In this document: positions 1 through 58,259 of the stretch, in pieces
How positions within the stretch are numbered: the first letter of the stretch is position 1
How the letters are laid out: each line of letters begins with the position of its first letter
From: a virus
DNA: 64,000 nt
Strand: one strand, 5' to 3'
Virus record (IMG/VR): IMGVR_UViG_3300024518_000034
Span: 1 to 64,000 of that record
Position numbers and translations under genes: made by a program
The notes under the pieces: generated by a model
Told to the model about the DNA's origin: nothing
The model's database searches: none
The model's input: the letters and a program-made list of their open reading frames with translations, nothing else

Positions 1-11
1 GTATTTTTTAG

Positions 12-40
12 TAGCAAAAGACAAGAGTTGTTGGTACTCT
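12..40 (+). promoter_or_regulatory. Repeated early-region promoter copy P1 (TAGCAA-N17-TACTCT)
   Basis: TAGCAA 12-17, 17-nt spacer ending TTGG, TACTCT 35-40; same motif recurs 7 more times. Confidence 0.75.
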
Positions 41-51
41 AAATAGAACAA

Positions 52-156
52 GCAGCGACACGGTGTTCAGGCATCGCATTCTCATAGCCTAAATCGGGTT
101 CATTGATGTGGGGATTGAAGAGGACGACTACGCCTCTTGGTGGGAAGCCACGCTGC
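52..156 (+). ncRNA. tRNA-shaped structured RNA (cloverleaf topology, extended anticodon-like arm)
   Basis: Closing stem GCAGCG(52-57)/CGCTGC(151-156); hairpins CGGTG/CATCG, AAGAGG/CCTCTT, and TGG-N7-CCA abutting the 3' strand; directly after P1; no credible ORF. Confidence 0.5.
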
Positions 157-160
157 AATA

Positions 161-228
161 GGGGAGGTAGTTTAAACTACAAAATCTCGGTCACGAAGAT
201 GCAGGTGAAAACCCTGTCCTCTCCACCA
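161..228 (+). ncRNA. tRNA-like RNA with CCA end but truncated anticodon arm
   Basis: 7-bp acceptor GGGGAGG/CCTCTCC + A-CCA; D stem GTTT/AAAT; T arm GCAGG-TGAAAAC-CCTGT; anticodon arm only TCG-GTCA-CGA (10 nt instead of 17). Confidence 0.7.
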
Positions 229-230
229 CC

Positions 231-352
231 AAGATTACCGAGAGTATATAATCGGTCACTGCGTCTTGTAGCGCATCACAACGGAATCATTCTGCAAGCG
301 TTCGCATCGGGGCGCAGTCCAGCGGCTGGTACGATGCTAGTCCAGCAATCTT
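231..352 (+). ncRNA. Multi-hairpin structured RNA, tRNA-like topology
   Basis: AAGATT(231-236)/AATCTT(347-352) closure; ACCGA/TCGGT and TGCG/CGCA hairpins; GCTGG/CCAGC stem abutting the 3' strand. Confidence 0.45.
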
Positions 353-372
353 AAATAAGAAAGGCAAATGAA

Positions 373-528
373 ATGAAGATTCTGATCGGGTTGGTGCTGG
401 TGTTTACTCCCCTTAGCATAGTTGAATGTGAGGTTCTCTTTTGTCGGGAGCCTGCTAGGGTCATCGTTGAACATGGTGACCATACTCATGAATTGTGCTG
501 GAAGCACTTTCGAGAAAAAATAAGATAG
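373..528 (+). CDS. Small hypothetical protein (51 aa; hydrophobic N-terminus, Cys/His residues)
   Basis: Hand-translated MKILIGLVLVFTPLSIVECEVLFCREP...ELCWKHFREKIR; ends at the P2 promoter. Confidence 0.4.
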   Translation: MKILIGLVLVFTPLSIVECEVLFCREPARVIVEHGDHTHELCWKHFREKIR

Positions 529-531
529 TAG

Positions 532-560
532 TAGCAAGAACAATACTTCACTGGTATTCT
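532..560 (+). promoter_or_regulatory. Promoter copy P2 (TAGCAA-N17-TATTCT)
   Basis: TAGCAA 532-537, TATTCT 555-560, followed by AAGTGAAGTAAG. Confidence 0.75.
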
Positions 561-574
561 AAGTGAAGTAAGAT

Positions 575-734
575 GTCCTGGCTCGGTGCAGGATGTTGGA
601 TAGGCCATTGAAGAAGTCACGGGTCAAGCCCCTAAGCCGGGAGAGTCGTGAGCGTGAAACTATAACGTTAATGCTAGCCTAAGCGTTAGGAACCAATGCC
701 AACATTCAAAACGGTTCAATTCCGTTTGGGGACT
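575..734 (+). ncRNA. Reduced tmRNA-like RNA (tRNA-like domain + long P2 helix + short internal frame)
   Basis: Imperfect acceptor GTCCT/GGGGAC; canonical T arm AACGG-TTCAATT-CCGTT (710-726); helix GGATGTTGG(591-599)/CCAACATTC(699-707) extended by CATTG/CAATG; internal frame ETITLMLA-TAA (656-682) with stop in hairpin CCTAA-GCG-TTAGG. Confidence 0.45.
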
Positions 735-790
735 GCTGAGAAGTCAAGGTGCGAAAACTTACGAAGCTCGCATTCTTTCCAGGGGTTTTA

Positions 791-825
791 GGGATGTACC
801 ATCGGCGTCAAACATCCCGTTCTTT
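791..825 (+). terminator. Hairpin GGGATGT/ACATCCC followed by GTTCTTT; possible terminator or processing site
   Basis: 7-bp stem with short T-rich tail after the ncRNA block. Confidence 0.4.
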
Positions 826-845
826 AACAAGTAGGAGAGAGAAGA

Positions 846-1046
846 ATGTCTCATACGTACATCGTTGCTATCAGAGAGGTTCACATAAATCTTGTAGAAG
901 TAACGTCAGAGGGTCCATTGAGTGAGGAAGACGCTAAAGAGATAGCAGCGCAGCATAGCTGTTCGGATTCTCTCGATATCGAGTTTAGTCACACTATGGA
1001 TAACGATACTTGGACGGTAGAAGAAATAAACAAACAGGAGAAGTAA
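846..1046 (+). CDS. Hypothetical acidic protein (66 aa)
   Basis: ORF with upstream AGGAG Shine-Dalgarno. Confidence 0.65.
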   Translation: MSHTYIVAIREVHINLVEVTSEGPLSEEDAKEIAAQHSCSDSLDIEFSHTMDNDTWTVEEINKQEK

Positions 1047-1048
1047 TC

Positions 1049-1210
1049 ATGGCACGAGGTAAGAACCGTAATCAGCCGAAGATCAAGGTGAAGTGCAAGA
1101 AGTGTCAGGACGTGGGTGTTCGCTCTGTTCTCGTGATTCGCTCTGGTCCGAAAGCAACTCGTGGTGGTGCGTATCGCTCGGTGGTCAAGGTGGACTGCTG
1201 CAATGTTTAG
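1049..1210 (+). CDS. Small basic protein with CxxC...CC (possible Zn-binding)
   Basis: ATG 1049 after AGGAG; MARGKNRNQPKIKVKCKKCQD...VDCCNV. Confidence 0.6.
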   Translation: MARGKNRNQPKIKVKCKKCQDVGVRSVLVIRSGPKATRGGAYRSVVKVDCCNV

Positions 1211-1367
1211 TACAATTGAGGCAGATCGTGCAGCTTGTGCAGCAAACAAAACAAAAGCAGTCCGCGATGGAAAATTCGCTGAAGCGAGGGAGTGGAGTAA
1301 AGCGGAACAACATTTGAGAGAGGCAAGCGCTGCAATTCGCAGGATCAAGTGGCTAATGAAAAAGTAG
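1203..1367 (+). CDS. Hypothetical protein (54 aa)
   Basis: ATG overlaps the end of the previous gene; stop abuts promoter P3. Confidence 0.5.
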   Translation: MFSTIEADRAACAANKTKAVRDGKFAEAREWSKAEQHLREASAAIRRIKWLMKK

Positions 1368-1396
1368 TAGCAAGATCAGTAGTTTGTTGGTATTCT
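1368..1396 (+). promoter_or_regulatory. Promoter copy P3
   Basis: TAGCAA 1368-1373, N17, TATTCT 1391-1396. Confidence 0.8.
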
Positions 1397-1431
1397 AAGT
1401 GAAGTAAGGAAAACCACAAAAGGAGGGACAA

Positions 1432-1653
1432 ATGAAAGTGAAGATGAAAAACCCAAGTAGCTGCATGGCTCGGACATCTAAGATCAAGGCCATTGCAAAA
1501 CAATGCAAGGCGCTGGGATTTATAGTCAAGGCAGACTATAAAAGTGCTGGCACCGTCAAGATCAAGGATGGTGAGGAAGAGATGTACATGGCTATTCAAA
1601 AGGGTAAGAATGGCCCTTGGATCGTTCGCTACAGTCAAGATTATTTTGCATGA
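1432..1653 (+). CDS. Hypothetical basic protein (73 aa)
   Basis: ORF with GGAGG SD, downstream of P3. Confidence 0.7.
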   Translation: MKVKMKNPSSCMARTSKIKAIAKQCKALGFIVKADYKSAGTVKIKDGEEEMYMAIQKGKNGPWIVRYSQDYFA

Positions 1654-1663
1654 GGTAAGACCA

Positions 1664-1834
1664 ATGGAGACTGAGAGGATTTATATCTGGGGCGTTTACA
1701 AGGCGATAGGGCACCTTGTCACCGACAAGGTTGGGCAGTCTCCTACTGAGTTGGGCGCAAGACTGGTAGCTATCGAGTGTCGCAAGACTGGGTATCTTGG
1801 TAATCTCAAGAAGATTCGCCGCAGAATAAAATAA
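1664..1834 (+). CDS. Hypothetical protein (56 aa)
   Basis: GAGGT SD, ATG 1664; ends just before P4. Confidence 0.55.
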   Translation: METERIYIWGVYKAIGHLVTDKVGQSPTELGARLVAIECRKTGYLGNLKKIRRRIK

Positions 1835-1843
1835 ATAAAGTAG

Positions 1844-1872
1844 TAGCAAGAAGTAAGTTAGTTCGGTATTCT
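1844..1872 (+). promoter_or_regulatory. Promoter copy P4
   Basis: TAGCAA 1844-1849, N17, TATTCT 1867-1872, A-rich upstream. Confidence 0.8.
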
Positions 1873-1906
1873 AAGTGTAAGTAAGAGAAACCGAAAGGAG
1901 ATCAAG

Positions 1907-2134
1907 ATGCAAGTCGAGAAGATCAGAGCGGCATTTGAACAAGCGTTTGGTGAGGCTGAAGTAGTGAGAACTGTTCCGGTGATTAGCATTGCGACACCTA
2001 ATGATGAGTTTACTGTCGAGATCGTCAATGGCAGACTGATCTGGACCGATTTCAGTCACACAACTGACCTGGGGCCTGAAGACGGGTCAGAAATTATCAA
2101 GAAATTGGTAACAAAGTGGGTAACTGCCAGGTAA
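1907..2134 (+). CDS. Hypothetical protein (75 aa)
   Basis: AAGGAG SD; ORF track. Confidence 0.7.
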   Translation: MQVEKIRAAFEQAFGEAEVVRTVPVISIATPNDEFTVEIVNGRLIWTDFSHTTDLGPEDGSEIIKKLVTKWVTAR

Positions 2135-2171
2135 TAGAGCGATCTGGGAAAACTACTAGGAGAATAAAATA

Positions 2172-2435
2172 ATGCGTAAGGCAGACGTGGAAGTGGGTAA
2201 GGTGTACAGTGCCAAGGTGAGCGGCAAACTTGTGATTGTGAGGCTAGATCGTGAGTCACGATATGGCGGTTGGGAAGGCACAAATCTATACACTGGCCGA
2301 AGTGTAAGGCTTAGGACTGCTGGACGATTGCGCCTGGAAGTACCGGAGTCTGTTGTTCAGAGAATGATTGACAGAGATAAGGTTCACAGAAAAAATGTCA
2401 AAAAGTGGCAAGAAGAGGAGTGGTCGATTTCTTAG
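2172..2435 (+). CDS. Hypothetical basic protein, SH3-like beta motif (KxDVxVGKxYxAKVSG...GGWxGTNLxTGRxVR)
   Basis: AGGAG SD; ORF track. Confidence 0.7.
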   Translation: MRKADVEVGKVYSAKVSGKLVIVRLDRESRYGGWEGTNLYTGRSVRLRTAGRLRLEVPESVVQRMIDRDKVHRKNVKKWQEEEWSIS

Positions 2436-2452
2436 AAAAGGAGAAAAACCAA

Positions 2453-2734
2453 ATGGCATGGCAAGTGATTTTGAATGGCGCACCAATTATTGATTGTGAG
2501 TCTGAAACTGAAATGGCAGACAAATTGCTCGCACTGTTCAATTTGGGGGTTTTTGGAACATTCGACACCAGAGAAGTGAAGTGTAAAGATTGTGCTGACC
2601 ACCTGCTGGGTTGTCCTGTTTGCACTGACCAACCTGCGCCTGCCACCAAGCCGGTGCGCTGGATCGTCCCGTCGCTGGTCCGCAAGACCGGCGCTGGCAA
2701 GTGGGTCGCGGAGCAAGGGGCGCGGGACGACTGA
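2453..2734 (+). CDS. Hypothetical protein with CxxC...CxxC
   Basis: AAGGAG SD before ATG 2453; CKDC and CPVC motifs. Confidence 0.65.
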   Translation: MAWQVILNGAPIIDCESETEMADKLLALFNLGVFGTFDTREVKCKDCADHLLGCPVCTDQPAPATKPVRWIVPSLVRKTGAGKWVAEQGARDD

Positions 2735-2758
2735 CCAAAAAGAAAATAAATAAAGTAG

Positions 2759-2787
2759 TAGCAAGAGTAGCAGTACGTTGGCAATCT
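2759..2787 (+). promoter_or_regulatory. Promoter copy P5 (TAGCAA-N17-CAATCT)
   Basis: Same motif and spacing. Confidence 0.7.
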
Positions 2788-2814
2788 AAATGTAGTAAGA
2801 AACAGTAAGATAAA

Positions 2815-2936
2815 GGGAGCCAACAATACTCCAGCGCAAAATCAGGCCGCGCTACACAAGAAAAGAGCAAACCGAGTGCTGAGAATCTAGGGGCGGTACG
2901 CAAGGGAAACGGTGGGTCGTGCGTGCAAAAAGCTCC
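2815..2936 (+). ncRNA. Multi-hairpin structured RNA of unknown class
   Basis: GGAGC/GCTCC closure; AGCGC/GCGCT, AGCA/TGCT and GTACGCA/TGCGTGC stems; follows P5; no ORF with SD. Confidence 0.4.
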
Positions 2937-2957
2937 GTTAAATTAAAAATCACCATG

Positions 2958-3032
2958 GATTCCGTCGCAGACTGCTGAAGGGTGCTAGGCTTGATAAATC
3001 CTAGTACCAGGGTTCAATTCCCTGCGGAATCT
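2958..3032 (+). ncRNA. tRNA-like RNA with elongated anticodon stem and no variable loop
   Basis: Perfect acceptor GATTCCG/CGGAATC; T arm CAGGG-TTCAATT-CCCTG; stem GTGCTAGG/CCTAGTAC with 10-nt loop CTTGATAAAT; atypical D region. Confidence 0.7.
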
Positions 3033-3063
3033 AAGATAAGTAAACAAAAACAGGAGAAAGAAA

Positions 3064-3237
3064 ATGAAGAAAGGTAAGACCATGGAAAAGCTCTTAGGTG
3101 AAATTCTAACTGAGATAGATAATTTGTCTCTTTCGGAGGGTAGTGACGGTTGTGACTTTCCTTGGACCGTAGTGGATGTTCGCTCTGTGAACCGATTGAA
3201 AGAGCTTGCAAACGAAATCGCAAAAGAAACAAAATAA
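3064..3237 (+). CDS. Hypothetical protein (57 aa)
   Basis: Hand-translated MKKGKTMEKLLGEIL...; AGGAG SD; ends at P6. Confidence 0.6.
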   Translation: MKKGKTMEKLLGEILTEIDNLSLSEGSDGCDFPWTVVDVRSVNRLKELANEIAKETK

Positions 3238-3241
3238 GTAG

Positions 3242-3270
3242 TAGCAAAAATAAAGTCACGTTGGTACACT
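3242..3270 (+). promoter_or_regulatory. Promoter copy P6 (TAGCAA-N17-TACACT)
   Basis: Same motif and spacing. Confidence 0.7.
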
Positions 3271-3305
3271 GAGTGGTAATAAACAAAACAAATCAGGAGA
3301 GAGCT

Positions 3306-3548
3306 ATGTCAGTGAATAAAAAGAACTTCCAGCGTCGTCATTATGTTGCAGTAGCTGAAGCGATCAACACGCTCTGGAGTGAGGCACGCGATGGGGAAAT
3401 GATGGTAGCGACTAAGAACGAAGAGTCGTACCGTGATGCGTTGACTGATACCATCAGCGAATTGTCTAAAACTTTCTTCTATGACAATCCCAACTTCGAC
3501 CAGACTCGATTCACTGAGGCGTGTCGAAAAAGAAATAAAAAAGAGTAG
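3306..3548 (+). CDS. Conserved-looking phage early protein (RxHYxAVAxAI...DNPNFDxxRFxxAC)
   Basis: AGGAG SD; motif type common in phage early regions. Confidence 0.65.
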   Translation: MSVNKKNFQRRHYVAVAEAINTLWSEARDGEMMVATKNEESYRDALTDTISELSKTFFYDNPNFDQTRFTEACRKRNKKE

Positions 3549-3577
3549 TAGCAAACAAGTAGCGAGCTTGGTATTCT
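3549..3577 (+). promoter_or_regulatory. Promoter copy P7
   Basis: TAGCAA 3549-3554, N17, TATTCT 3572-3577. Confidence 0.75.
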
Positions 3578-3615
3578 GTTTAGAAGGATAACAACGGAAA
3601 ACAGGAGAAGCGGAA

Positions 3616-4602
3616 ATGGCACATAAGATTAAGCTGGTTAAGGACAAGATTGAAGTCCTGACCGATGGCTGGCCTGGTAAGCCAGCACTCGCTAAGATCA
3701 AGGCATTGCCCGGTCGCAAGTGGGACGCGGATCGCAAGATCTGGTGGCTCCCCGCTTCGCCGGATGGCGTTGCCGCTGCCGTAGCGCTCGCCGCTGAACT
3801 GTGTTATGTGGTTGGCGACGATCTGCTCAAGCAGGCTTCCGATCAAGCTCGAAAAGAAGATGGTGTGTTTGCGGTACAGGACGCATTCATTGATGACGAC
3901 GTGGCAGCATGGGCATTTCAGCGTCAAGGCAGTAAGGCACTGGCGCGTAACGACCGTTACATTCTGGGCGATGACATGGGTCTGGGAAAGACTCGTCAGT
4001 ATCAGATGGCTCTGCCGAAGGCTAAGAAATGTGGACTGCTGGTGATCTGCCCAGCTTCGATCAAGGGTGTTCACGAGAAAGAGCTTCGCAAGTGGCGTAA
4101 GGATTTTAAGAAAATCACGATTATCTCAGGACGTGGGAACTTCAGGTATCCCAAGACCGGTGAGTGTGTCATCATCAATTTCGACATTCTCCCCAAGGTG
4201 GTTGAACTGGAGACTATGGACGTTCCGGCTGATCTCATCGTGGTGGTTGATGAAGCGCATAACTGCAAGAATTACAAGGCGCTACGCACCAAGCGAGTTA
4301 CTAAGATTATCGAACGTGCCTGGCTTGCATGGCTGTTGACTGGTACAGCGCTACAGAATCGACCCGGAGAACTCTGGACTATCCTTCAGGTTGGCGGTCT
4401 GATTGAAAAGGCTGGGCTGACGTTCGGACGCTTTTGCGCTCTGTTCGGTGCTAAGAAGGGTCAGTATGGAATGGTTTGGGGTGCGCCTCGACCAGAGATT
4501 GCGGAAATCCTCAAGCGAGTGATGCTTCGACGTGAGAAGGGCGAAGTGCTACAGGATCTGCCGGAAAAGGTGTACAGCAGTGTGCCGGTGGAAATCTTTT
4601 AA
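3616..4602 (+). CDS. SNF2/SMARCAL1-type helicase, N-terminal half (HARP-like domain + RecA lobe 1)
   Basis: PGRKWDADRKIWWLP HARP-like segment; DDMGLGKT (I), VVDEAH (II), LLTGTALQN (III), MLRR..VLQDLPEK; lacks motifs IV-VI. Confidence 0.9.
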   Translation: MAHKIKLVKDKIEVLTDGWPGKPALAKIKALPGRKWDADRKIWWLPASPDGVAAAVALAAELCYVVGDDLLKQASDQARKEDGVFAVQDAFIDDDVAAWAFQRQGSKALARNDRYILGDDMGLGKTRQYQMALPKAKKCGLLVICPASIKGVHEKELRKWRKDFKKITIISGRGNFRYPKTGECVIINFDILPKVVELETMDVPADLIVVVDEAHNCKNYKALRTKRVTKIIERAWLAWLLTGTALQNRPGELWTILQVGGLIEKAGLTFGRFCALFGAKKGQYGMVWGAPRPEIAEILKRVMLRREKGEVLQDLPEKVYSSVPVEIF

Positions 4603-4610
4603 GAAAGTAG

Positions 4611-4639
4611 TAGCAGGATCAGTAGCATGTTGGTATTCT
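4611..4639 (+). promoter_or_regulatory. Promoter copy P8 (TAGCAG-N17-TATTCT), between the helicase halves
   Basis: Near-identical to P3 over ~50 bp; begins right after the helicase-N stop codon. Confidence 0.8.
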
Positions 4640-4689
4640 AAGTGTAGTAAGGAACAACGGAACGCAGGCAACGAAAAAAGGAGCGAGAC

Positions 4690-4953
4690 ATGGCACGACG
4701 CAAGACCACGAGCCCCGGCAAGATCCGCAGCACGACCCGCGAAGCGAACGAGTTGGCTGACATGCTGACGCGCCTTCTGGTTCCGGTTCTGGGCGAGGAC
4801 ATTGCCCGCAAGCTGGCGTTCAAGACGCTGATCAGCAAGAACCCGGCTCGTCGCCTGGACGGTGCCAAGGAGGTTCAGAAGTACCTGGGCCTCGCTGGCG
4901 CGAACAAGCTCCAGGCCCTGTGCGCCAAGACAAACTTCAAGAACGCCCGTTAA
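4690..4953 (+). CDS. Hypothetical basic protein (87 aa) inserted between helicase halves
   Basis: AAGGAG SD; high-GC codon usage. Confidence 0.75.
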   Translation: MARRKTTSPGKIRSTTREANELADMLTRLLVPVLGEDIARKLAFKTLISKNPARRLDGAKEVQKYLGLAGANKLQALCAKTNFKNAR

Positions 4954-4966
4954 GGAGATCAATCAA

Positions 4967-6073
4967 ATGACCAACGTCAAGACGCTACTCGACAGGGTGC
5001 AGCAAGATTGGGATGAGAACTACCCAGCCGACAAGCTGCCTCCCTTCGAGGAGCTTTCGGCTGCTCGCGCTGCTCTTGCGACTGCTAAGATCCCTGCCGC
5101 ACTGGAGTGGATCAAGCAGTATCAAGAGAACAGCGACAAGCCACTGATCGTGTTCAGCGCTCACCGTGCGCCGGTCGAAACGATCAGCGACCTTGAGGGG
5201 TTCGATTCGATTCTCGGGGGCACGCCTGTCGAGCGCAGGACACAGCTTGTCGAGGATTTCCAGGCTGGCAAACTCAAGGGTCTTGCCATCACGATCAAGG
5301 CCGGCGGTGAGGGTCTGACCTTGACCGCTGCGGATCACGCGCTATTTGTTGATCTGGAATGGAACCCGGCCAAGAATCGTCAGGCGGAAGATCGTATCCA
5401 CCGCATCGGCCAGCGTGATTCGGCTAGCATCGTAGTGCTTGAAGCAAACCATGAGATTGATCGCAGGCTCTGCGAGCTTCTCCAACACAAGCAGGATCTG
5501 TTCGACAAGGTGATCGGCGCAGCAAGCGTGGAAGAAAAGCTCACGCAGCAGGAAATCGTGGATAAGGTCAAGAATCAGGAAGTGCCGGAAGATGAGCCCA
5601 AGAAGAAAGAGCCGTTTATCAGGTATGCCAAACTGATTCAGCACATGGTTGACGCTAGGGCCAAGGGCTTGAAGTGGCCGAAAATCACGCTGCGTGCGAA
5701 CGGTCAGGTTGTCCAGCTTTCCCTCACGGGAGACAAGGCGAAACGACCAGGCACGATCAACCTCTCAAACGGTGAGAAGTTCGGCAGTCCCAAGAACAAG
5801 TACTACGGGGCGATTGGAAAAGACGGGAAATGGTTTCCAGCGAGAAACCTTGACGCCAAGACACGCTCCGCAGTCGTGGCTCTGCTCGACGCTTTCCAGC
5901 GTGACCCAAGCGAGATCGCTCTCAAACACTCGCACGATACTGGGTACTGTTGCTTCTGCGGCATCCTCATCGGCGCGACGGGAAAGAAGGAAAGTGTGCT
6001 TAGGGGATACGGTCCCAAGTGCGCCCAGAATTGGGGTCTGCCGTTCGACTTCGCCAAGTACGCAAAAGAGTAA
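4967..6073 (+). CDS. SNF2-type helicase, C-terminal half (RecA lobe 2) fused to a C-terminal DUF6011-like Zn domain
   Basis: AAGGAG SD, ATG 4967; LIVFSAHR (IV), GGEGLTLTAAD (V), WNPAKNRQAEDRIHRIGQ (VI); C-terminal CCFCG...ESVLRGYGPKCA. Confidence 0.9.
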   Translation: MTNVKTLLDRVQQDWDENYPADKLPPFEELSAARAALATAKIPAALEWIKQYQENSDKPLIVFSAHRAPVETISDLEGFDSILGGTPVERRTQLVEDFQAGKLKGLAITIKAGGEGLTLTAADHALFVDLEWNPAKNRQAEDRIHRIGQRDSASIVVLEANHEIDRRLCELLQHKQDLFDKVIGAASVEEKLTQQEIVDKVKNQEVPEDEPKKKEPFIRYAKLIQHMVDARAKGLKWPKITLRANGQVVQLSLTGDKAKRPGTINLSNGEKFGSPKNKYYGAIGKDGKWFPARNLDAKTRSAVVALLDAFQRDPSEIALKHSHDTGYCCFCGILIGATGKKESVLRGYGPKCAQNWGLPFDFAKYAKE

Positions 6074-6089
6074 AGATGTTCATTTCTCC

Positions 6090-6140
6090 ACCGTCTAACG
6101 ATTCAAGCGATTAAGGATCGTTAGACGGTTCTCCTTTTCT
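6090..6140 (+). terminator. Rho-independent terminator
   Basis: CCGTCTAACGAT/ATCGTTAGACGG perfect 12-bp stem followed by TTCTCCTTTTCT. Confidence 0.8.
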
Positions 6141-6163
6141 TGTGCAATTAAGGAATATTGGTC

Positions 6164-6343
6164 ATGAAAGCTACACTAGAGAATGTGGAAGTAAAGAGTG
6201 TCTTGGGTGTTTACAACTTGAAGGACAACAGCAACAAAAAGGAATATAGAAAGGTTCAAGTGTTTTTGGGATTTGATGATAAGAAGTATGTTTGGTTGAA
6301 TAAGAAATGGTACAGCATGGATTCGTTCGACGTTGTACTGTAG
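6164..6343 (+). CDS. Hypothetical protein (59 aa)
   Basis: ORF track; AAGGA upstream. Confidence 0.45.
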   Translation: MKATLENVEVKSVLGVYNLKDNSNKKEYRKVQVFLGFDDKKYVWLNKKWYSMDSFDVVL

Positions 6344-6632
6344 TGTTTGACGAGTAATACAAACGAATACACAAGTAAACAAACGAGGATTACAAGAGTT
6401 TGAGGATGGTAAGGATTGCAGGGCGTCTAAAAGGGCTGAATAAGGGCGCGTCCCCGCGCCGTCCAGCAATCCTTAACTTTACATAACGGCATAAACACAT
6501 AAAGCGTACAATACTCATATAAAAGAAAAATAAAGAAAGATAGGGGGGATTGCAGGTTTTTCGGTCATAGCTGGTAGGCAGTAAGTTACGAATTTGACAC
6601 TTTAGATAACATTTCAGTCGAGGGAAACAAAA

Positions 6633-6911
6633 ATGCAGAAGGTAGAAGTGGTCAACGCGCTACGGGCAATCTTGGAAGCTGCAAACCTGGCCGATGCAAC
6701 GGAACCGGTTAGAAACGATCTACCGGCTGGCGCGGCATTCGAGCGAGGCGGCTTGTACGGTCACATCAAGCAGGCGCTGATTTCGCTGGGCGAAGGAGAA
6801 GCGCAGGAACAGTGGACGATCACGGGTGAATGGCCCTCAGACGAGTTGAGTTGCATCAATTGCGACGGTCGCCCGTGTTGGGGCTGTCCGGTGGATCAGA
6901 TCGGTAGCTAA
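6633..6911 (+). CDS. Hypothetical protein with C-terminal CxxC-x3-CxxC
   Basis: GAGGG SD; CINCDGRPCWGC. Confidence 0.7.
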   Translation: MQKVEVVNALRAILEAANLADATEPVRNDLPAGAAFERGGLYGHIKQALISLGEGEAQEQWTITGEWPSDELSCINCDGRPCWGCPVDQIGS

Positions 6912-6930
6912 AGAAAAATAAAAGAATAAG

Positions 6931-6959
6931 TTGGCAATCGTTGGAAATCGTGATAAGCT
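6931..6959 (+). promoter_or_regulatory. Sigma70-type promoter upstream of the sigma gene (TTGGCA-N17-TAAGCT)
   Basis: A-rich UP element, 17-nt spacer. Confidence 0.45.
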
Positions 6960-7005
6960 TTATGTGTTCAGCAAGTAACTAACACTTTTCAAACGGAGCG
7001 CGAAA

Positions 7006-7572
7006 ATGACCAAAACGCAGCAGGCTTTCATCGTGCAGTACCTGGACCTGGCGATTCGCATCGCCTCGAAAATCCTGGGGGAGTGGATCGACCCGGATAG
7101 CGATAAGGGAGCCAGCGCGTATTTCGGGCTCGTTGAAGCGGCCCAAAAGTTCGACGCCGACAAGGGCACGCCGGAAAGCTGCGTTTGGCTTTACGTGAGA
7201 AAGCGTGTTCTGCGCGATCTGCAATCATTCACTCGCACCAGTAAGTCGAGAGCGTGCAACGCTTGCAAGGGCAAGATCAAGGTTGCAACGTGCGATGCTT
7301 GCGGTGGAACGGGTCGCCAGGTTGTAACGCTCGGGATCGCTGGACAGGTTGGGAAGTGGGATGCGAATAACGAGGACGCGGAACAGGTTGGCACGCTTCT
7401 TGACACGCTCGACTCACGAGCCCGCGACATCCTCACCCAGCGCTACCTCGGGAAGCGCACACAACAGCAGGTTGCCGACAAGCTCGGCATCAGTCGCCAG
7501 TACGTTACGAAGATCGAGAGGCAGGCTCTGGCATCGCTGAGAATCGCTGCTAAGGGGTCGCCAGTCCAATAA
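7006..7572 (+). CDS. Phage RNA polymerase sigma factor (sigma70 family regions 2 and 4) with Zn-finger insert
   Basis: AYFGLVEAAQKFDADKG (region 2); RDILTQRYL..TQQQVADKLGISRQYVTKIERQAL (region 4 HTH); CNACKG...CDACGGTG between them. Confidence 0.85.
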   Translation: MTKTQQAFIVQYLDLAIRIASKILGEWIDPDSDKGASAYFGLVEAAQKFDADKGTPESCVWLYVRKRVLRDLQSFTRTSKSRACNACKGKIKVATCDACGGTGRQVVTLGIAGQVGKWDANNEDAEQVGTLLDTLDSRARDILTQRYLGKRTQQQVADKLGISRQYVTKIERQALASLRIAAKGSPVQ

Positions 7573-56579: not shown

Positions 56580-58259
56580 ATGATCTGCGCGGACATACAT
56601 AAGCAGGAAAGCAGAATAGTAGTTTGGACAGACGAAAGTAAAGAGTCGATAGCACTGAGAAGAGTTATCGACTCTTTGCCTTACTATTTAGAGTTTGATA
56701 ACAAATACATAATTTCTATCTACGATTTTTGTTTATTGAAAAATGGACTGGACAAAGAAAATTTAAAAAGTAGAAGAATGAGTGGACCACTAAGAGATAA
56801 AATTTCTTTATTGAATAGTGAGGGAGAAGAGTTACCAGACTTGAACCTAAAAAGACCATTGCTTCCTTTTCACGAAGGCGGGGTTAAATTCTTAGCTTCA
56901 AGAAATTCCTTACTCGCTGATCAAATGGGGTTGGGAAAGACAGGACAAGCTTTAGCGGCAGCAAGCCTTTTGATAAAACAAGGTAAGGCGAATCATGCAA
57001 TATTTTTGGTAACTAAGAGTGGGATGGAACATTGGTGTGATCAAATAAAGACTATGTTCCACGATGAAGATATTGACTACGTTGTAGTTAGAGGAAAAGC
57101 TAATAAAAGATTACCCTTGTACAAAGAAGATCACAAGTTTTATTTGGTGTCTTTGGATACATTTAAGAAAGACATAGAAAAGTTATTTCCGAATAGAAAT
57201 AAGAAGTTAAGAGAGATGTGGTCTAAGTCTATAGTGGTGGTGGACGAGATTCATCGAATTAAGCATTCCAGAACCATAAGCGCCAAGGCTTGCTATAAAA
57301 TAGGAAGGTATGCTGCTTACAGGTGGGGCATGACGGGGACACCGTTAGATGGAAGAGTCGAGAATCTGTATGGAGTGATGAACTTTATAGATAGAGATTT
57401 TTTTGTAAACAAAGGTCATTGTTTAAGTTACCACACTATTACTGATTTCTGGGGTGGAATTACTGAATACAGAAATATGGAGAGCTTGAGGGAAAAACTC
57501 AAAACAGTAATGATACGCAGACTGAAAAAGGACGTTTGGAAAGAATTACCAGATAAAGCCTATTTAGATCATTACATAGATTTAAGCACCGAAGAAAAAA
57601 AATTATATAAGCAAATCAAGAGACAGCAACTAGATATGGTGTCTCCAGAAATAAATGAAAAAATCAATATTTGCTTGCCAATTGGGCTGCTATCGTATGG
57701 GCAGATGTGTGTCAACACACCTACCTTAATAGATCGTAAATGGACAAAACCATCGACAAAAATGAAAGAACTGTATGAATTGTTAGAAGAATTAACAGTT
57801 ATTTCCAAAGTGGTAGTTTTTACTAAATTCGCTAAGATGTGTCACATCTTACATCAGTGGTTGCCCTGGAAGAGCGTAGTGTTCACAGGAGAGCTAACTA
57901 CCAAGGAGAGAAGAAAAAGGCAGGTGGACTTCTTGACAAACGAAGAGATTCGTGTTTTCATAATGGATACAGCAGGAGCGCAAGCTATCGATTTACATGG
58001 AATTGAAATCGATGGAGTTTGGCACCAAGGTGCAGAGTATTTAATTAGATATGACAACCTTTGGAATCCAGCTATGAATGAACAAGTTGAAGACCGCATC
58101 CACAGAGTTGGACAAAAAGAGAAGGTGACAATTATTGACTTAATTGCACGAGACACGATAGAAGAGAAGATTAAAAGTTTATTGGTAGCCAAGAAGGAAA
58201 TAACGAAGAGGATAATAGATAAAAATCTAACAGAAAAAGAATGTATGATACTCATGTAA
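56580..58259 (+). CDS. Intact SNF2-family helicase
   Basis: ADQMGLGKT, VVDEIH, GMTGTP, WNPAMNEQVEDRIHRVGQ. Confidence 0.92.
   Translation: MICADIHKQESRIVVWTDESKESIALRRVIDSLPYYLEFDNKYIISIYDFCLLKNGLDKENLKSRRMSGPLRDKISLLNSEGEELPDLNLKRPLLPFHEGGVKFLASRNSLLADQMGLGKTGQALAAASLLIKQGKANHAIFLVTKSGMEHWCDQIKTMFHDEDIDYVVVRGKANKRLPLYKEDHKFYLVSLDTFKKDIEKLFPNRNKKLREMWSKSIVVVDEIHRIKHSRTISAKACYKIGRYAAYRWGMTGTPLDGRVENLYGVMNFIDRDFFVNKGHCLSYHTITDFWGGITEYRNMESLREKLKTVMIRRLKKDVWKELPDKAYLDHYIDLSTEEKKLYKQIKRQQLDMVSPEINEKINICLPIGLLSYGQMCVNTPTLIDRKWTKPSTKMKELYELLEELTVISKVVVFTKFAKMCHILHQWLPWKSVVFTGELTTKERRKRQVDFLTNEEIRVFIMDTAGAQAIDLHGIEIDGVWHQGAEYLIRYDNLWNPAMNEQVEDRIHRVGQKEKVTIIDLIARDTIEEKIKSLLVAKKEITKRIIDKNLTEKECMILM

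Follow-up and report, generated by a model that had tools for sequence, protein, structure and literature searches.

Layout of the split SNF2 locus

The DNA analysed here is a window of 64,000 nucleotides, the left end of an IMG/VR record (IMGVR_UViG_3300024518_000034; 192,308 bp) from an uncultured marine phage; at positions 3616 to 6073 it carries a gene for an ATPase of the SNF2 type that lies in two pieces, the N-half with the first and the C-half with the second of the RecA lobes of the motor, a promoter-like sequence and a small gene being placed between them. The original prediction for this locus, made from the sequence, had proposed that an SNF2/HARP helicase was broken there and that both pieces are retained as subunits of one functional enzyme. 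The features concerned are the following:

3545..3577, + strand: putative early promoter copy P7, ahead of the N-half; fits GTAGTAGCA-N15-TGGTATTCT, with an A-rich tract upstream and AGGAG and ATG 3616 downstream
3616..4602, + strand: SNF2 N-half, 328 amino acids (aa); ends ...LPEKVYSSVPVEIF, then TAA
4607..4639, + strand: putative early promoter copy P8, within the split; also fits GTAGTAGCA-N15-TGGTATTCT; the stop codon of the N-half lies 4 nt upstream
4690..4953, + strand: small gene, 87 aa, with its own AAGGAG at 4678-4683
4952..4957, + strand: Shine-Dalgarno sequence AAGGAG of the C-half, 9 nt 5' of ATG 4967; overlaps the TAA of the small gene (4951-4953)
4967..6073, + strand: SNF2 C-half, 368 aa from ATG 4967; in frame +1 relative to the N-half
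6090..6129, + strand: predicted terminator hairpin closing the unit; a 15-bp perfect stem, then a U-rich run

The gap between the halves measures 364 bases, with 87 and 13 nt outside the small open reading frame (ORF). The promoter copy and the ORF 4690-4953 are indeed present between the halves, and the C-half does possess its own AAGGAG and a different frame. The break itself proved to be real: coordinates and frames were verified, both lobes are recognized by Pfam, and the junction is bridged, with zero differences, by Logan contigs from two other seawater runs (X3, 4579-5542; X4, 4556-4814). These independent contigs, together with the same structure in a second lineage described below, exclude an assembly error. 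The region gave no match in a blastn comparison with 50,697 phage records.

The N-half matches PF00176 (SNF2-rel_dom) with 71.6 bits (cut-off 24.9) and the C-half PF00271 (Helicase_C) with 55.7 bits (cut-off 23.5); on PHROG 62, a phage group annotated as "DNA helicase", they match adjoining stretches, 691-931 for the N-half and 980-1150 for the C-half (E values of 3e-39 and 1e-34), so that, judged by these profile matches, the split protein is an SNF2 ATPase of the PHROG 62 group. Motifs I (GLGKT), II (DEAH) and III (TGTA) of RecA lobe 1 are readable in the N-half, which ends just past LPEK...VEIF. Its AlphaFold2 model (predicted local distance difference test score, pLDDT, 88) has a beta-beta-alpha-beta-beta-alpha domain (residues 1-62) ahead of lobe 1, and the last 14 residues form an unpaired coil when the half is modelled alone. 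RecA lobe 2 with motifs IV-VI occupies residues 1 to about 190 of the C-half, and the QAEDRxxRIGQ block is conserved in the alignment. The C-terminal 178 residues (5537-6073) match PHROG 4046, a group of unknown function, and end in a zinc-ribbon-like CxxC...GPxC; the DUF6011-like zinc domain that had been read into the C-half stays under the Pfam gathering cut-off (17.2 versus 26.6 bits, E 0.0038, over 16 residues only). At the place of the PHROG 4046 domain the closest unsplit relatives (L005, L036 and L052) carry a different C-terminal domain.

Nor is the assignment to HARP firm. No match to PF07443 was obtained for the window protein at an E limit of 0.1, nor was a PDB sequence match found when looked for in this connection; the hints that there are, a match of E 0.024 in 2 of 11 aligned sequences and the name "SMARCAL1-like" given by JGI to many of the relatives, are weak. 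With the SMARCAL1/HARP annealing helicases and PHROG 62 the window protein shares an SNF2 motor with a small N-terminal domain; it differs in that its gene is split, in that its C-terminal domain (PHROG 4046, with its faint likeness to DUF6011) is absent from SMARCAL1, and in that HARP is not among the domains listed for it. From its family, the enzyme, presumably produced early in infection, would be a DNA translocase or a motor that remodels forks. The anti-defence role that had also been considered for it is without support. The best NCBIfam scores against the named defence SNF2 proteins (DrmD, ZorD, DpdE and HmaA) are 15-89 bits, with cut-offs of 500-1500, and the PADLOC matches cover the generic motor only. 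A second, unsplit SNF2 gene does exist in the genome, as predicted (56580-58259); it is 26-33% identical to the halves and has the usual low GC content of the genome.

The break in a second phage and in unsplit relatives

The same layout, with the same residues at the end of the N-half and at the start of the C-half, is found in a different phage (contig Ga0114908_1001066, here L019). Its N-half (P0004, 327 aa) is 85% identical to that of the window and stops at the same residue, the gap comprises 455 bases, in which the promoter and a 90-aa ORF homologous to the small one are found, and the C-half (P0124, 368 aa; 88% identical) is preceded by TAGGAG where the window has AAGGAG. Since both phages share this layout, the split must be older than their divergence. 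Between the two split genomes the ratio of nonsynonymous to synonymous changes (dN/dS, after Nei-Gojobori) is 0.133 for the N-half at a dS of 0.77 and 0.100 for the C-half at a dS of 0.81, and drops to 0.084 in the motor part of the C-half (residues 1-190), all of these being values from a single pairwise comparison with dS near saturation. Relaxed selection, for which a check on both halves had been proposed, is thus not seen, and the description of the halves as undegraded is borne out by their intact motifs of helicase superfamily 2 (SF2), their full-length frames and these low ratios (0.13 and 0.10). On this comparison, both halves are under strong purifying selection since the window and L019 diverged. 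That the locus should be a decaying pseudogene or a product of faulty assembly is therefore extremely improbable; the gene is interrupted, to be sure, and the paralogue could compensate for its loss, but independent contigs and an independent lineage share the structure, and the frames are full length with a dN/dS of about 0.1 over a dS of about 0.8.

For a comparison of intact and split alleles, relatives were gathered from viral and metagenome collections (roughly 43 loci on about 25 distinct contigs). Outside the split lineage both lobes are detected in about 27 loci (about 15 distinct), all of them in a single frame, and where only the C-lobe is detected, the match sits in frames of 470-1170 aa, that is, of full-length size; among the fetched loci the split is seen only in the window and L019, the more distant relatives having one frame. 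Compared with the unsplit proteins L005, L036, L052, P0005 and P0006 the junction is seamless, with no extra residues on either side. The first residues of the C-half align with the helix that follows the LPxK...strand segment of the intact proteins; what had been taken for a new N-terminal helix is therefore ancestral.

The same alignment refines the position of the cut. By SF2 topology it would lie directly behind the LPxK strand and not strictly within the inter-lobe linker, as had been proposed. Lobe 2 of SF2 proteins opens with the strand that follows the inter-domain linker, and by this general topology that strand (KVYSSVPVEIF) would here reside on the N-half.

Three metagenome proteins of 325-358 aa (P0134, P0136 and P0168) contain Helicase_C only and start at the split point or within a few residues of it; they may stem from further splits within this SNF2 group, either independent or older ones. 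Four proteins with PF00176 only (P0118, P0119, P0009 and P0014) were rejected as candidates for a split, their ends looking frameshifted or truncated rather than clean. A homologue in a 146-kb IMG/VR phage (L004, 3836-5912) has an apparent frameshift near motif I, where ORF 3836-4267 overlaps ORF 4179-5912, the cause being either an error in sequencing or another kind of break.

Probable reassembly of the halves, and the small gene between them

Taken together, the data make it probable that one SNF2 ATPase gene was cut in an ancestor of at least two marine phages and has been kept as two cistrons, the products of which would reassemble into one motor. As far as sequence can tell, the two-subunit proposal of the original prediction is supported by the independent contigs, by the identical break in L019 and by the lack of relaxed selection. 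The cut holds a stop codon, a copy of the putative early promoter (P8), a foreign-looking small gene, and a new ribosome-binding site with its ATG.

SF2/SNF2 motors close their two RecA lobes around ATP; motifs I and II of lobe 1 bind the nucleotide, and hydrolysis also needs the arginines of motif VI in lobe 2. Because neither half alone can be an ATPase and both sets of motifs are conserved, reassembly of the halves would be required. There are no intein halves, and therefore no re-ligation is to be expected; the chains would have to stay together non-covalently. By SF2 topology, the LPxK segment of the N-half, with the lobe-2 strand, may dock onto the C-half by strand complementation, and such a strand swap is plausible from the model.

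It could be argued that the halves have instead taken up separate roles, the N-terminal domain serving in DNA binding and the C-terminal zinc domain as an adaptor, with the ATPase dead; the intact SNF2 gene elsewhere in the genome and the extra non-motor domain on each half would fit such a division. We regard it as very unlikely, however, as catalytic motifs I-VI are all conserved, and the dN/dS of lobe 2 given above (0.084 for residues 1-190 of the C-half), which shows selection there to be no weaker than in the remainder, is unexpected for a dead motor. Repair at the level of RNA or protein, by a group I or II intron, a split intein or translational bypass, would yield a single polypeptide, and introns and inteins do often interrupt phage genes. 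Such repair is scarcely to be expected here: no Rfam match was obtained in 3000-7000 at E values up to 1, no additional residues at the junction could be intein halves, and the gap carries a promoter and a translated, diverging gene. With 364 and 455 nt, respectively, and indels between them, the gaps of the window and L019 differ in a way that excludes a conserved ribozyme or bypass element.

The ORF between the halves is a real gene that is diverging and, by its composition, looks foreign. Homologues of 89-107 aa are P0002, the L019 copy, P0242 (E 2e-12) and P0243 (E 3e-9); the matches to P0240 and P0244, two large repeat proteins returned by the representative search, were judged spurious. 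The search of the small gene against viral contigs returned nothing, as did that of P0245 against genome contigs. The protein has no match in Pfam, PHROG, NCBIfam or PADLOC, Foldseek against PDB gave nothing at E values up to 0.001, and the protein atlas held no usable match. In the AlphaFold model (pLDDT 74) a disordered basic tail is followed by four helices; a homing endonuclease (GIY-YIG, HNH, LAGLIDADG and others) is indicated neither by this all-helical model nor by any Pfam or PHROG match. The gene evolves faster than the halves (dN/dS 0.53, window versus L019), and its GC content at third codon positions (GC3) is 0.82 (0.89 in L019), compared with 0.57-0.68 in the halves and an overall GC content of 0.40 for the genome.

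The divergence is unevenly distributed. Across three variants the first 23 residues stay the same, though synonymous changes occur there, and the stretch of promoter, leader and first 23 codons (window 4607-4756, L019 7072-7221) is 93-98% identical between the two phages, as against about 80-90% in the flanking helicase halves and about 55% (DNA) in the remainder of the small gene. This may reflect a conserved tail together with constraint on the promoter, or recent gene conversion, both being possible. No N-terminal tag is shared between the small protein and other genes of the window.

These observations bear on a further explanation, that the small protein is a dedicated third subunit, an assembly clamp or regulator, inherited together with the split and produced in concert with the C-half. 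In its favour, the small gene is present in both split loci, occurs once in its own genome and is missing from four phage genomes in which the SNF2 gene is intact, its stop codon overlaps the ribosome-binding site of the C-half, and its first 23 residues do not vary despite the synonymous changes. Against this, its dN/dS is four to five times that of the halves, its composition differs from theirs, and neighbourhood by itself is weak evidence. In the complex prediction the small protein, as partner of N-half and C-half, scored 0.22, with the mark at 0.32, a result that speaks neither for nor against its binding. A third subunit is unlikely, and it would be quite unlikely in the specific form that the small protein arrived with the split, is translationally coupled to the C-half, and holds the lobes together or gates the motor by means of its basic tail and helical bundle. 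If a third subunit it were, it would constitute a natural, evolvable switch on the cleft of an SF2 ATPase, and P0134, P0136 and P0168 would be signs of a broader family of phage motors that are split deliberately.

Putative early promoters and the proposed origin of the split

The two promoter copies at the locus belong to a series. The motif GTAGTAGCA-N15-TGGTATTCT is preceded by an A-rich tract and followed by AAGTG.AGTAAG; the genome contains 17 copies (about 0.13 in composition-matched shuffles), 16 of them on the + strand. Of these 16, 15 form a cluster that extends from 185 kb over the terminal repeat to 4.7 kb, with P8 as the last copy in the series. The copies span window positions 8-4639 and genome positions 185464-192051, and behind each come a short leader and either a small gene or a structured RNA; the leaders share AACAACGGAA, and several of the genes start with ATGGCAC. 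The first 40 bases of the record are found again at 192012, which points to a direct terminal repeat of about 297 bp at the record end (window 1-297, genome 192012-192308); the phage genome is probably complete, with an early region that spans the ends of the record. A stretch of 51 nt around P8 (4604-4654) is 92% identical to the copy at 1361-1411, and L019 keeps a counterpart of P8 at 7072-7104 with 2 changes in the spacer. The motif resembles an extended -10 promoter of the sigma-70 type, by which likeness it would be active. An early role of the split copy, as had been suggested, is consistent with its position in this cluster.

Because no terminator follows the N-half (the scan of 4500-4690 found no terminator-like site between it and P8), transcription from P7 would cover the N-half and read through into the small gene and the C-half, with P8 supplying added transcripts of the latter two. 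Translation of the C-half probably starts in coupling with that of the small gene. The whole unit would end at the hairpin 6090-6129, which was also picked up in the terminator scan; it has a folding energy of -22.8 kcal/mol (z -4.4), which none of 200 shuffled sequences reached.

In their early regions, the window and L019 are collinear save for whole cassettes that begin or end at promoter copies: L019 has an extra promoter-led ORF at 5647-5937 and lacks window positions 6590-6983, while its positions 3150-4850 are without a counterpart in the window. L019 also contains about 85 extra bases between the stop codon of the N-half and the promoter (6985-7070), ending in an A-rich tract; the 4-nt spacing in the window looks like a deletion relative to L019. 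Since cassettes differ at promoter copies in this manner, the split is read as the insertion of a promoter-led cassette, which would have entered an intact, GC-rich and probably acquired SNF2 gene within a promoter-bounded early region of fast turnover. A chimeric origin of the two halves, considered on account of their GC3 in the window (0.57 and 0.68), was rejected, the values in L019 being 0.64 and 0.66.

Several points weigh against the view that a gene cut by such a cassette persists as a two-subunit motor. The insertion demands a very precise outcome (stop codon, ribosome-binding site and ATG, with zero residues lost), and neither a donor site nor a donor copy was found for the cassette; the small gene, single-copy and absent from the four phage genomes with unsplit relatives, gives no sign of mobility. 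An intact and natively composed SNF2 gene is present in the same genome, so that the split copy is not obviously indispensable, and selection on the halves was estimated from the one pair of genomes mentioned, at a dS close to saturation.

Enzyme genes divided by inserted DNA are known from T4-type phages and provide the nearest parallels: nrdA of Aeh1 is split by mobE, the T4 topoisomerase genes 39 and 60 are separated by mobA, and gene 43 exists as 43A/43B in Aeromonas phages 25 and 44RR; the two polypeptides reassemble into an active enzyme, and in phage 44RR the pieces of gene 43 are parted by an intercistronic sequence that is untranslated and encodes no endonuclease (PMC2988022). As in these cases, an enzyme gene that is contiguous in relatives has been turned by inserted DNA into two retained cistrons; in contrast to them, the enzyme is an SNF2/SF2 motor, the insert consists of an early promoter and the gene of an 87-aa helical protein with no recognizable homing endonuclease, and activity, published there, is for the split SNF2 a prediction from sequence. 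Genes fractured by split inteins and accompanied by a free-standing endonuclease have also been described (Dassa et al. 2009, PMC2677866); they likewise consist of a gene in two pieces with another gene in the gap, but neither intein halves nor an endonuclease are found here.

A parallel to the presumed insertion is offered by the promoter-early stem-loop (PeSL) cassettes of T4-type phages, which are connected with exchange between nonessential genes (Arbiol et al. 2010, PMC2839356). There, as with the putative promoters here, many near-identical strong early promoters in a hyperplastic region of small genes bound the insertions, deletions and replacements between close phages. P8 differs in that it has no adjoining stem-loop terminator and an unrelated promoter sequence; moreover, the cassette lies inside a conserved enzyme gene, and recombination would have to be assumed for these promoters. 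In the limited collection of literature consulted, no paper on an SNF2 motor split by a promoter-plus-gene cassette without an intein was found. Most likely, then, the split SNF2 gene is a fresh case of the known "genes in pieces" phenomenon and not a new kind of system. Its interest lies in that the known cases are driven by endonucleases and concern genes of nucleotide metabolism and replication, while here it is a promoter-plus-small-gene cassette that interrupts a motor protein; the turnover of promoter-bounded cassettes in an early region could thus remodel a conserved enzyme gene without killing it. Lobes that are naturally separate and have been kept by selection throughout a long divergence would offer a ready system for asking how much of the linker is required and by what means the lobes come together, and in annotation such halves should not be labelled pseudogenes.

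The locus is part of a GC-rich island (window 2405-2734 and 3616-7572) with 53-62% GC and a GC3 of up to 0.82 in a genome of 39.7% GC, values suggesting that it was acquired from a source rich in GC. Small genes of AT-rich composition interrupt the island, which holds the split SNF2 gene, the small gene, ORF 6633-6911 and a sigma-factor-like gene (7006-7572). The product of the latter (188 aa) is sigma-70-like with a zinc-finger-like CxxC...CxxCxGxG insertion, and it is conserved in L019 (9016-9639).

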